Assembly: GCA_041661305.1 (NCBI GenBank)
Contig: JBAZUR010000002.1
Location: 76,621-110,258 of the forward strand
Origin: Minisyncoccota bacterium
Lineage (GTDB): Bacteria > Patescibacteriota > Minisyncoccia > Phycocordibacterales > VMEP01
Direction: 5' to 3'
DNA: 33,638 bases
Shown here: in pieces, positions 22,059 to 33,541 of the stretch
Layout: each line of letters begins with the position of its first letter
Numbering within the stretch: position 1 is the first letter of the stretch
The notes under the pieces: generated by a model
Databases searched by the model: none
Told to the model about the DNA's origin: nothing
The model's input: the letters and a program-made list of their open reading frames with translations, nothing else
Position numbers and translations under genes: made by a program

Positions 22059-23477
22059 ATGTACCTTTCAACTCGCGGTAAGGCACCGGCAGTCAATTTC
22101 GCAGACACAGTGCTTGCAGGATTGGCGCCAGACGGAGGGCTATATGTTCCGGAGAAGTTTTTCCGGGCCAATGAGGGAGATTTCCGGCTACACGCCAGCG
22201 GTTCGTATCAGGATGTCGCTCGTTTCGTGATGGAGCAATTTGCTCCCGACATCAATAGGAGCAAACTTTGGGGGGCAATAGCGAAAGCTTATACCCCGGA
22301 GGTCTTCAAGAACGTCGCTGGTCCAGGTTTCGAAGTGGCAAGTGATATTGTTCCGGTGCGCGACCTTGGGCGAGAGATGTATCTTGCCAGGCTGAGCAAT
22401 GGGCCGACTTTGGCGTTCAAGGATTTGCCTCTGCAGTTGCTCGGGCATCTTTTCGAAGTTGTTCTCGGGCGCAACAAGAAGCTCAACCTTCTCGGCGCGA
22501 CCTCGGGGGACACCGGCTCGGCGGCTATTCACGCAATGCTTGGGAGAAAAGGCATCCGTGTCTTTATGCTCTCTCCGCATGGCAAGATGAGCCAGTTTCA
22601 GGCTGCTCAGATTTTGAGCGTCAACGATCCGGCAGTTCACAACATTTCGATTCGCGGGTCGTTCGACGATTGCCAAGATGTGGTCAAGGCGGTCAATGCC
22701 GATGCCGGTTTCAAAGAGATGTACAGCATCGGTGCCGTGAACTCAATCAACTGGGCGCGTATTGCAGCTCAAGTCCCTTACTACTTCTGGGTTTACTCCC
22801 GGGTTCGTGGTGGTGATGGTGGAGTAATCGACGTTGCTGTCCCGACAGGGAACTACGGCAATATTTACGCGGCGTGGGTAGCGAAAATGATGGGGGTGCC
22901 GATTCGTCGGCTGATTCTCGCGACCAACGAAAATGACGTGCTTCACGAGTTTTTCACGACGGGCATTTACAAGCCCCGAGAGAAGACACTCGTGACGTCG
23001 AGTCCTTCGATGGACATCACCAAGGCATCGAATTTCGAACGATTCATCTACGATGTCTTTGGTGGCGATGCGGACAAGGTTTCGAAGTTGTGGAAAGCGC
23101 TCGACAAGTCGGGGCAGTTTGATTTGTCGCACAGGATATCGGCCATTCGGGCGAAGTCCGGCATCACTTCTTTTGCCACGCGTCAGAGGCAGGCGAACGA
23201 AGCAATCTTGCGTATCTTCAATAGCACTGGGGTTATCATCGACCCGCACACTGCGGTCGCGATGTATGCTGCAATCGGCATGAAACATCCGGGAGTGCCG
23301 ATGGTTGTGATGGAAACAGCGCAACCGTGCAAGTTTGATGACGCAGTAAAGAAGGCGCTCGGCCTCACAGCGAAACCGCCGGCCGGCATGGAAGGGCTTT
23401 TGTCCGCTGAAAAGTTCTTCACGCTGATGGATCCCGATCCCGAAAAGGTGAAGGATCTAATCCGTGCCTACGCGTAA
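22059..23477 (+). CDS. thrC: Threonine synthase (long, class II type)
   Basis: YLSTRG, GLAPDGGLYVP, GPTLAFKD (PLP Lys), ATSGDTG, FDDCQD, NSINWARI, VPTGNYG, SPSMDI, IDPHTA; AGAGG SD; GC-richer than flanks. Confidence 0.95.
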   Translation: MYLSTRGKAPAVNFADTVLAGLAPDGGLYVPEKFFRANEGDFRLHASGSYQDVARFVMEQFAPDINRSKLWGAIAKAYTPEVFKNVAGPGFEVASDIVPVRDLGREMYLARLSNGPTLAFKDLPLQLLGHLFEVVLGRNKKLNLLGATSGDTGSAAIHAMLGRKGIRVFMLSPHGKMSQFQAAQILSVNDPAVHNISIRGSFDDCQDVVKAVNADAGFKEMYSIGAVNSINWARIAAQVPYYFWVYSRVRGGDGGVIDVAVPTGNYGNIYAAWVAKMMGVPIRRLILATNENDVLHEFFTTGIYKPREKTLVTSSPSMDITKASNFERFIYDVFGGDADKVSKLWKALDKSGQFDLSHRISAIRAKSGITSFATRQRQANEAILRIFNSTGVIIDPHTAVAMYAAIGMKHPGVPMVVMETAQPCKFDDAVKKALGLTAKPPAGMEGLLSAEKFFTLMDPDPEKVKDLIRAYA

Positions 23478-25057: not shown

Positions 25058-25203
25058 ATGGGGGTGTCGGTCACGAGTATTTTTTATACCGTCGTATAAA
25101 AAATCTCTCGACCCCAGCTCGCCATTTTGTCTGCTGACAAAATAGGGCTGCGCTTTTCAATTCCCCCGCGCGAGCAAAGCAGTTTGCTCGCTCATCTCCA
25201 CCA
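25058..25203 (+). repeat. Palindromic element copy A with inverted copy of the tmRNA 3' end
   Basis: tcggtcacg...cgacccc core; ttcaattccccc[25 nt]catctccacca (25156-25203) mirrors the tmRNA T arm and acceptor end. Confidence 0.85.
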
Positions 25204-25244
25204 TAAAACAAAAGCGCCCCAAATTGGGACGCTAATGTTTTTAA

Positions 25245-30203: not shown

Positions 30204-30240
30204 TCATCCGTGGCTGATTGAAAATATGCGTCCGTCCTTA

Positions 30241-30278
30241 CCCGCCCGAATGGAACGAGCCCGCTCGGTACGGGCGGG
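30241..30278. mobile_element. 38-nt miniature hairpin insertion at TTA^G
   Basis: cccgcccg...cgggcggg terminal inverted repeat; absent from the intact tRNA copy. Confidence 0.8.
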
Positions 30279-30291
30279 GCTCAGTTGGTTA

Positions 30292-30327
30292 CCTGCCCGA
30301 ACGACTGGAATCGTTCAGTCGGGCGGG
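30292..30327. mobile_element. 36-nt miniature hairpin insertion at TTA^G
   Basis: cctgcccga...tcgggcggg terminal inverted repeat; same target context as the 30241 insertion. Confidence 0.8.
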
Positions 30328-30422
30328 GAGCACAGAGCTTATAAATGGCAACGAGGAATAAGTGGAAGTTTACTTACATTTAGGCCGAGTGAACCGTTTA
30401 TATGAATTGAAAATTTCATAGT

Positions 30423-30496
30423 CCGTCCTTAGCTCAGTTGGTTAGAGCACAGAGCTTATACCTCTGCGGTCCCTGGTTCGAATCCAGGAGGACGGA
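30423..30496 (+). tRNA. tRNA-Ile(UAU), CCA not encoded
   Basis: Cloverleaf CCGTCCT/AGGACGG, D stem GCTC/GAGC, anticodon arm CAGAG-CTTATAC-CTCTG, T arm CCTGG-TTCGAAT-CCAGG, A73. Confidence 0.93.
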
Positions 30497-30515
30497 CTAT
30501 GAAATAAATCATATC

Positions 30516-30539
30516 CCTCTGCGGTCCCTGGTTCGAATC
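30516..30539 (+). pseudogene. 3' fragment (from C38 through the T loop) of tRNA-Ile(UAU)
   Basis: cctctgcggtccctggttcgaatc identical to 30461-30484. Confidence 0.92.
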
Positions 30540-30553
30540 AGAAAAAAACAACC

Positions 30554-33398: not shown

Positions 33399-33525
33399 CG
33401 GAGACGGTGGTTCGGTCACGGATATTTTTCTGCTGAAAAATTCCGCGACCCCGCCTCGCGCCGTCGCGCTCCGGCCTTCGAATCCCACACGCGAGCAAAG
33501 CAGTTTGCTCGCTCGTCTCCGTTTT
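33399..33525 (+). repeat. Palindromic element copy D with inverted and direct copies of the tRNA-Ser 3' end
   Basis: cggagacggtgg (33399-33410) repeats 33542-33553; ttcgaatcccac[25 nt]cgtctccgtttt (33477-33525) mirrors the tRNA end; TGCT and CGTC hairpins in between. Confidence 0.88.
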
Positions 33526-33541
33526 TCACGGAGCTTCAAAA

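Follow-up and report, generated by a model that had tools for sequence, protein, structure and literature searches.

The window (the whole stretch of 33,638 nt that was analysed) contains an intact tRNA-Ile(UAU) gene; isoleucine tRNAs with a UAU anticodon are rare in bacteria. The gene lies nested within a broken outer copy of tRNA-Ile(UAU), termed here the shell, and the 5′ part of the shell is interrupted by two short hairpins, Ins1 and Ins2, assigned below to two repeat families. Loci of other genomes and metagenomes are designated by L numbers. The features of the locus are as follows.

30230–30240, forward strand: shell 5′ piece, one leader base and tRNA positions 1–9 (GTCCGTCCTTA; 100% identity to 30421–30431)
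30241–30278, forward strand: Ins1, a 38-nt GC-clamped hairpin at tRNA position 9/10, a decayed family-2 member
30279–30291, forward strand: shell piece with tRNA positions 10–21, i.e., the D-stem 5′ strand and D-loop (GCTCAGTTGGTTA; 100% identity to 30432–30444)
30292–30327, forward strand: Ins2, a 36-nt family-1 member at tRNA position 21/22 (35/36 identity to a Nomurabacteria copy and another Patescibacteria copy, L078 and L060, among the matches listed)
30328–30343, forward strand: shell piece with tRNA positions 22–37, i.e., the D-stem 3′ strand, the anticodon stem 5′ strand and the loop to A37 (GAGCACAGAGCTTATA; 100% identity to 30445–30460)
30344–30420, forward strand: spacer of 77 nt from the shell to the nested intact tRNA, without an ORF
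30423–30497, forward strand: intact tRNA-Ile(UAU) gene (ARAGORN; Rfam tRNA model, 69.6 bits)
30512–30539, forward strand: shell 3′ fragment, approximately tRNA positions 35–61, ending in the T-loop (96% identity to 30457–30484)

Repeat comparison within the window shows that the shell 5′ part (30230–30343) consists of positions 1–37 of the intact gene plus two precise inserts. Nested at shell position 37/38, the intact gene acts as the "empty allele" against which both insertion sites are defined. Ins1 and Ins2 are both found between TTA and G, with no target bases duplicated or lost, and comparison with the intact tRNA leaves their boundaries unambiguous, with no shift possible. An earlier first-pass annotation of this DNA had described two precise inserts of this kind at TTA^G, and the perfect identity of the shell pieces bears it out. 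It had also pointed to the ends CCYGCCCG...CGGGCGGG, and these are present on both inserts; CGGGCGGG is found three times in the window, always at this locus, where 0.32 occurrences are expected and none of 100 shuffled sequences reaches three. The same structure is present in independent assemblies from Logan, ENA and JGI, and thus an assembly artefact is excluded.

Each insert folds into a hairpin, and both interrupt the cloverleaf precisely where a stem meets a loop. Shell and inserts taken together also fold stably (−59.6 kcal/mol, z = −3.7). These two properties would fit a role at the RNA level, whereby the inserts are intron-like or processing hairpins and the shell is part of a multi-intron or split pre-tRNA. 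However, the shell has neither the T-stem 3′ strand nor the acceptor 3′ strand, and no tRNA can be rebuilt from it. Further evidence that bears on this reading comes from the other copies of the elements, described below.

A separate feature of the intact gene is a perfect 10-bp leader/trailer duplex that lengthens its acceptor stem and gives a 17-bp inverted repeat (30413–30505).

Repeat families and their anatomy

Two search patterns were derived from the inserts. The family-1 pattern, from Ins2, is CCCGCCCGACTGAACGA-N3-8-TCGTTCGGGCRGG and was scanned in contigs of one genome per species; the family-2 pattern, from Ins1, is CCCGCCCGTACCG-N10-22-TTCGGGCGGG and was scanned in metagenome contigs. 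The Ins2 pattern has at least 120 matching stretches in the species-representative genomes and the Ins1 pattern at least 120 in the metagenomes, in keeping with the earlier proposal of a very small, non-autonomous multi-copy element. Among the matches listed, the 80 Ins2-pattern entries with a title comprise approximately 35 from CPR/Patescibacteria, 26 from Bacteroidota, 11 from Ignavibacteriota, 1 from Bdellovibrionales and 7 that are unclassified. The family-2 relationship of Ins1 is best seen in a sister strain, whose Ins1 is identical at 37 of 39 positions to a 39-nt copy in L225, among the matches listed; the window Ins1 carries two further substitutions relative to the sister-strain version and is identical at 35 of 39.

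Family-1 elements are mostly 36 nt long (86 of the 123 copies listed), with others of 34, 35, 37 and 38 nt, and have the consensus CCCGCCCG AACGA CTGAnn TCGTT CAGT CGGGCGGG. Family-2 elements are mostly 33 nt, with variants of 34–42 nt and the consensus CCCGCCCGTACCGAACGGGTACGTTCGGGCGGG. Comparison of Ins1 with the family-2 consensus CCCGCCCGTACCG...CGTTCGGGCGGG shows that the consensus reads on the other strand. Common to both families are the clamp CCCGCCC/GGGCGGG and the inner stem GAACG/CGTTC, and both have a bulge of 4–6 nt that is complementary to the loop. The bulge and loop sequences co-vary, as GACTGA/TCAGTC in family 1, GTACC/GGTAC in family 2 and ACCGG/CCGGT in a variant from L065. 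Since bulge and loop are complementary, each strand should be able to fold either as a 5′-bulged or as a 3′-bulged hairpin, two alternative folds that are read off the sequences. A perfect palindrome of 26 nt, CCCGCCCGAACGGCCGTTCGGGCGGG, was also found and looks like the bare core of the elements.

It should be noted that positions fixed by the search patterns are unusable as evidence of conservation. Two observations are free of this bias. One is the relation between loop and bulge; the other is the depth profile obtained when contigs from four groundwater metagenomes were mapped onto the region. Summed contig depth rises from 6–34 to 360–640 over Ins2 only, a 10- to 100-fold increase, with loose contig ends exactly at 30291 and 30327 that run on into unrelated flanks. 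In this profile the stems show no variant letter at a frequency of 10% or more.

The first-pass annotation had also remarked that the inner hairpins of both inserts contain TGGAA. The pentamer is indeed present in both, but its sharing appears coincidental: in Ins2 it is part of the family-1 variable loop, and in Ins1 it arises from a strain-specific C>T substitution, the 97%-identical strain having CGGAA and the family consensus CGGAC. TGGAA was consequently rejected as a shared functional motif on these grounds. Readings of the hairpin as a K-turn, a hammerhead or a BHB intron were likewise rejected, as the defining motifs are absent.

A search of Rfam gave no match to the elements at gathering or E-value thresholds, and a literature search by sequence strings and keywords found no paper that contains the sequence or describes the family. 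Carriage by phages or plasmids was considered and rejected, with zero matches in plasmid and phage collections and a single one in 2.9 million viral contigs. The near-identity of copies across phyla could reflect a selected function. On the whole of this evidence, Ins1 and Ins2 are, with high confidence, copies of a non-autonomous palindromic repeat.

Loci of close relatives, found through a neighbouring PHP-domain protein, form a graded series. In L124 (PHP protein 83% identical) the tRNA-Ile(UAU) gene is a plain one, with the acceptor GTCCACCC (L124:3780-3860). In L123, with a PHP protein that is also 83% identical, a 5′ shell of the older type (GTCCACCC) without inserts is followed by a nested tRNA with the acceptor GTCCGTCC (L123:1800-1990), and the leader of this nested tRNA matches the leader of the window shell. 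The window then displays a second nesting, at 37/38 (30230–30540 compared with L127:2090-2400). Loci L127, L128, L129 and L188 are from the same species-level strain group as the window, and they have its nest and its Ins1, the latter with 2 substitutions. At the Ins2 site, however, all four have an unrelated 28-nt insert, tagcccagtaggTCATTGtgctCAATGA, that forms a hairpin with a TGCT loop (L127:2290-2330 and the corresponding places in L128, L129 and L188), and G22 is lost. No other occurrence of the 28-nt insert was detected in the sequences collected for this analysis.

The window and L188 can be compared over 8.4 kb at 97.1% identity, and over this length no indel of 4 nt or more is present except at the Ins2 site. 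Ins1 is gaining substitutions that break its inner stem, an observation that also speaks against a function of the insert in RNA. By this comparison Ins1 is older than the split of the 97%-identical strains and is decaying, and the Ins2 site changed after the split. A difference at the Ins2 site between strains so closely related indicates fast turnover there, and nothing else argues as strongly for recent mobility or replacement.

Insertion sites and orientation

Among the 125 family-1 copies listed, 27 are in tRNA-like sequence. Most of these are at the D-loop/D-stem junction (21/22), and the others are at 9/10, 13/14, 17/18, 36/37 and 54/55; family-2 copies are found at the same tRNA sites. 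Relative to the tRNA, 15 of the listed family-1 copies have the same orientation and 12 the opposite one. None of 251 listed copies is in a tRNA that ARAGORN finds otherwise intact after removal of the element, and an intact tRNA is present within 150 nt of 40 of the 251. Survival only in a redundant gene copy, as suggested in the first-pass annotation, agrees with these counts.

Some nests are more complex than that of the window. In L226 (reverse strand, ~590-720) a 3′ tRNA shell with positions 10–76 directly abuts an intact tRNA-Thr and contains a family-1 hairpin at 21/22 and, in its anticodon loop, another hairpin of a different kind. A family-2 hairpin occupies 21/22 in the 5′ shell of this nest. 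In the window itself, inverted copies of the T-arm and acceptor 3′ part are found downstream of the tmRNA gene (25150–25215) and of tRNA-Ser (33470–33530), each derived from the gene that it follows. Both are split by a hairpin, GCGAGCAAAGCAGTTTGCTCGC, that is distinct from the clamp families.

Copies are also intergenic, and others are in frame inside RecG and other genes, far from tRNA or nuclease genes. A check for in-frame copies in coding genes had been suggested at the outset, and such copies exist: of the 29 copies in long ORFs, 27 have a length that is a multiple of three (36, 33, 39 or 42 nt), compared with approximately 68% of all copies listed. When RecG orthologues are aligned, the window RecG included, the L119 protein has a clean insertion of 12 residues, PARLNDFSRSGG, and the L197 protein has clean insertions of 10 and 14 residues. 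Thus the copies inside genes appear to be read through and not excised, with translation into protein as the likely outcome. The L197 RecG (minus strand) has at least three in-frame clamp hairpins, which read PARPNGRSGG, PPERTEDGSSVRAG and probably NPPDRMTSVIRAG, and also has a larger insert of 26 residues.

Reading through, the occurrence of both orientations relative to tRNA and the lack of an Rfam family match all argue against the intron-like or processing hairpins considered above. With the broken shell and the decaying stem of Ins1 added, a role of that kind is highly improbable.

The sequence next to the copies shows a preference. Of 231 non-redundant copies, 94 (41%) have a TA step on one side, where 12% is expected from the flanks (p ~3e-27). 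TA is found to the left of 43 copies and to the right of 53, and 2 of the 231 have it on both sides. With tRNA-like contexts crudely removed, TA-adjacent copies are 71 of 200. The longer motifs are less frequent, TA^G being found at 50 of the 231 copies (22%) and TTA^G at 23 (10%), and 59% of copies have no adjacent TA. Thus there is a bias, not a fixed motif. The fixed TTA^G target that had been proposed from the two inserts is the commonest class and not the rule. A preference for the loops of existing hairpins was also considered and rejected, with stems of at least 5 bp around the junction at 18.3% of the sites and at 18.3% of controls 45 nt away.

Insertion at a short fixed motif without target duplication is characteristic of the HUH chemistry of IS200/IS605 and RAYT, and the inserts were first attributed to this chemistry. 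REP- or PATE-like hairpins would then be moved in trans by an IS200/IS605 TnpA or a RAYT and inserted 3′ of TTA. The lack of target duplication is consistent with this, as is an element that is itself a hairpin. So is the strong enrichment of TA on one side and almost never on both, with TA found about 2:1 to one side when copies are oriented with the 4-nt bulge 3′ (a manual count). Y1_Tnp proteins are present as well. A search for TnpA(Y1)/RAYT genes, which had been recommended together with the attribution, was made in the flanks of 240 element-bearing loci and gave six Y1_Tnp/RAYT-like ORFs in five of them (the CPR contigs L004, L012, L066, L067 and L113).

These ORFs, however, are 671–5055 nt from the nearest copy and are not flanked by the element: over the up to 400 nt scanned on each side there is no complete clamp hairpin, and only three lone half-clamp hexamers were found. 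The fixed orientation relative to a 5′ target motif that marks HUH elements is absent, given that the same tRNA site is filled in both orientations (15:12) and TA is on the left or right in similar numbers. The majority of copies without adjacent TA and the low share of TTA^G do not fit either. IS200/IS605 derivatives moreover need distinct left-end and right-end hairpins, whereas the element has room for one hairpin only. Mobilisation by HUH enzymes is for these reasons doubtful, and the attribution is not sustained. One of the five loci, L004, has two Y1_Tnp/RAYT-type IS200-like genes in tandem.

GIY-YIG genes and the candidate mobilising enzyme

ORFs of at least 100 residues were clustered from the flanks of the 240 loci, 1.54 Mb in all with up to 8 kb of contig per locus. 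The commonest flank cluster is a protein of approximately 80 residues that consists of a GIY-YIG catalytic domain only. The Pfam GIY-YIG domain matches residues 1–70 of these 79–85-residue proteins with E-values of 2.4e-11 to 1.5e-16, NCBIfam gives no match, and the nearest solved structures are the single-domain UPF0213 proteins 1zg2 and 1ywl. By profile search, 33 of the 240 loci contain ORFs of this type, 40 in total. In 30 of the 40 a clamp hairpin on the same strand ends no more than 121 nt upstream, and usually within 25 nt; the other 10 have no clamp hairpin within that distance. The hairpin is usually on the 5′ side of the gene only. No other gene type was found directly adjoining copies.

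The order of features is stereotyped. A tRNA 5′ part (positions 1 to ~28), with a hairpin at 9/10 or 21/22, is followed by the nuclease ORF and then by an intact tRNA. There are 30 cassettes in which the shell hairpin is 10–40 nt before the nuclease start codon, at the two tRNA positions that are occupied in the window. As its stop codon the GIY-YIG gene often uses U8-A9-G10 of the downstream intact tRNA (L008:2526-2777, L108, L206, L065 and L227), so that the nuclease and tRNA genes overlap with zero spacer. The orientation of the hairpin relative to the nuclease gene varies, approximately 16 to 9, and closely related nucleases adjoin either hairpin family. Co-evolution of nuclease clade and hairpin family was considered; the tree has poor resolution and no family-1 cluster, and no clear signal was obtained.

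No GIY-YIG gene is present in the 33.6-kb window, where a profile search of six-frame peptides gave nothing with an E-value below 0.5. The 77-nt spacer between shell and intact tRNA was examined for a remnant. By eye, "EVYLHLGRVNRL" in the spacer resembles "EVYLKSAAGRRFL" of a GIY-YIG C-terminus, but the profile search gave no such match and no significant remnant in the spacer, and this candidate was rejected. Many other copies, notably those in Bacteroidota and Ignavibacteriota, likewise have no nuclease gene within the contig of up to 8 kb examined per locus. In the relative L124, a GIY-YIG gene is positioned between smpB and the tmRNA gene (L124:7905-8174) with no clamp hairpin nearby; at the equivalent place the window has no GIY-YIG gene.

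The cassettes raise the question of whether the hairpins are independent elements at all. They may instead be parts or relics of a GIY-YIG/replacement-tRNA cassette, not mobile on their own here, with the nuclease gene lost later; they could, for example, act as plugs in the shell, disrupting the old D-arm or the nuclease target site. The 30 cassettes with hairpins at the same positions as in the window speak for such a model. Against it, identical elements are present in RecG, in other genes and in intergenic DNA, all far from tRNA and nuclease genes. Two 97%-identical strains have different sequence at the Ins2 site, the only indel of its size in 8.4 kb, without any change of cassette. In addition, the older shell of L123 is free of hairpins, the window spacer has no significant nuclease remnant, and the orientation of the hairpin relative to the nuclease gene is variable. 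Hairpins as built-in cassette parts are thus rather unlikely.

A published system offers a parallel. Ssn proteins consist of a single GIY-YIG domain and cleave single-stranded DNA beside cognate hairpin repeats; their genes are flanked by NTS/SRM repeats, which occur in hundreds of copies, and the authors liken the layout to IS200/IS605 and REP systems (Chenal et al., Nat Commun 2025, PMC11893778). Both Ssn and the present case have a dispersed multi-copy repeat of 20–50 nt that forms hairpins, a single-domain GIY-YIG protein of ~80–95 residues encoded beside a copy (here in related loci, not in the window), and a repeat orientation set by non-palindromic parts. They differ in the clamp, which is CCCGCCCG here and ATTCCC...GGGAAT in SRM. 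They differ also in that the repeat is here usually on one side of the nuclease gene, within a duplicated tRNA 5′ part, and in that copies are here common in genes and tRNA fragments, in contrast to only 2% of NTS in genes.

The cassette layout matches the published Ssn architecture, and by analogy the ~80-residue protein may be a nuclease of the Ssn clade (cd10448) that would cleave single-stranded DNA beside the folded repeat. An Ssn-like single-domain GIY-YIG nuclease is the candidate for the mobilising enzyme, put forward tentatively and with a chance close to, or a little under, even. The adjacency of gene and hairpin may be a by-product: every nuclease cassette has a short tRNA 5′ shell left immediately upstream, and shells collect hairpins.

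The explanation favoured here, which combines selfish hairpin repeats with Ssn-like GIY-YIG mobilisation, is considered probable as a whole. Ins1 and Ins2 would each represent one of two sister families of selfish, non-autonomous palindromic repeats of 33–42 nt that enter DNA precisely, with no target duplication, in either orientation and preferably at a TA step. Copies would persist only at harmless sites, i.e., dead tRNA fragments, intergenic DNA and proteins, and in the last case those with lengths in multiples of three would be translated as a loop of 10–14 residues. The host in the window would be a remnant, the 5′ half, of a tRNA-Ile gene whose place was taken by an intact copy nested at 37/38. 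The mobiliser would be an Ssn-like GIY-YIG nuclease of ~80 aa acting on a folded single strand, not an HUH transposase.

A bolder version, which is regarded as improbable, posits an as yet undescribed kind of minimal mobile system with two components, the hairpins and the ~80-residue GIY-YIG protein. The protein would be a structure-specific single-strand nuclease that recognises the folded clamp with its bulge, and that cuts and rejoins DNA at TA steps, for example at tRNA positions 9/10 and 21/22. Solo hairpins of 33–42 nt would be non-autonomous riders. The autonomous form would be the unit of shell, hairpin, nuclease gene and fresh tRNA, approximately 400 bp in length, and it would drive nested tRNA gene replacement across CPR bacteria.

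Comparison with known elements

The elements appear to work like REP, RPE and SRM repeats and mitochondrial GC clusters, yet they differ from each. Rickettsia palindromic elements (RPEs) are ~100–150 bp long and restricted to Rickettsia. They are found in frame in essential protein genes and also in RNA genes, and are translated as extra loops; no transposase is known for them. The likeness to the present elements is in palindromic insertions that are in frame and, here putatively, read through into protein. The present elements, however, are 33–42 nt, three to four times shorter, as well as GC-clamped and common to several phyla.

REP and REPIN sequences are extragenic and species-specific, have a GTAG-type head and bracket a RAYT (HUH Y1) gene. 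They share with the present elements the form of short, GC-rich, imperfect palindromes of 20–40 nt in many copies with no target duplication, and a presumed substrate that is a single-strand hairpin. In contrast, copies here are intragenic and cross-phylum, and do not bracket the RAYT-like genes. MITEs of the DDE type also have inverted ends, but the present elements show no target-site duplication, with TA on both sides being as rare as noted above (2/231).

In yeast mitochondria, GC clusters such as GC42 are GC-rich hairpins of 30–45 nt in an AT-rich genome; they show fast turnover between strains and variation centred in the loop, and an intron-encoded endonuclease has been suggested as helper (PMC4478555). 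GC-rich hairpins, fast turnover and loop variation are likenesses of the present elements to these clusters and to mitochondrial double-hairpin elements. The clusters are organellar and have target duplication, whereas the elements here are bacterial and have none.

A further comparison concerns the same host group. CPR rRNA genes contain short ORF-less inserts at the tops or bases of stem-loops, and some longer inserts encode GIY-YIG proteins (PMC11270868). Short inserts at stem-loops of a structural RNA gene are thus common to both. The rRNA inserts, compared here by their description, differ in being within functional rRNA genes and in not being described as a sequence family. They may be related to the present elements.

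If the favoured explanation is true, the elements would be among the smallest mobile DNAs known in bacteria, nearly unchanged across CPR, Bacteroidota and Ignavibacteriota, and tolerated inside essential proteins such as RecG. The broken tRNA shells that typify CPR genomes would be marked by these elements, which perhaps also contribute to the formation of such shells. The pairing of a ~36-nt hairpin with a nuclease of ~80 residues would bring a new repeat family and uncultivated phyla into the range of Ssn systems. In annotation, odd "PAR...SGG" loops of 10–14 residues in CPR proteins would be explained, as would tRNA-like fragments that gene finders miss.

One other region of the window stands apart in composition. 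An ORF of 472 residues at 22059–23477 resembles a PLP-dependent enzyme of the threonine-synthase type and is within a 2-kb stretch of 52.8% G+C, compared with approximately 40% for the window; this stretch may be foreign DNA.
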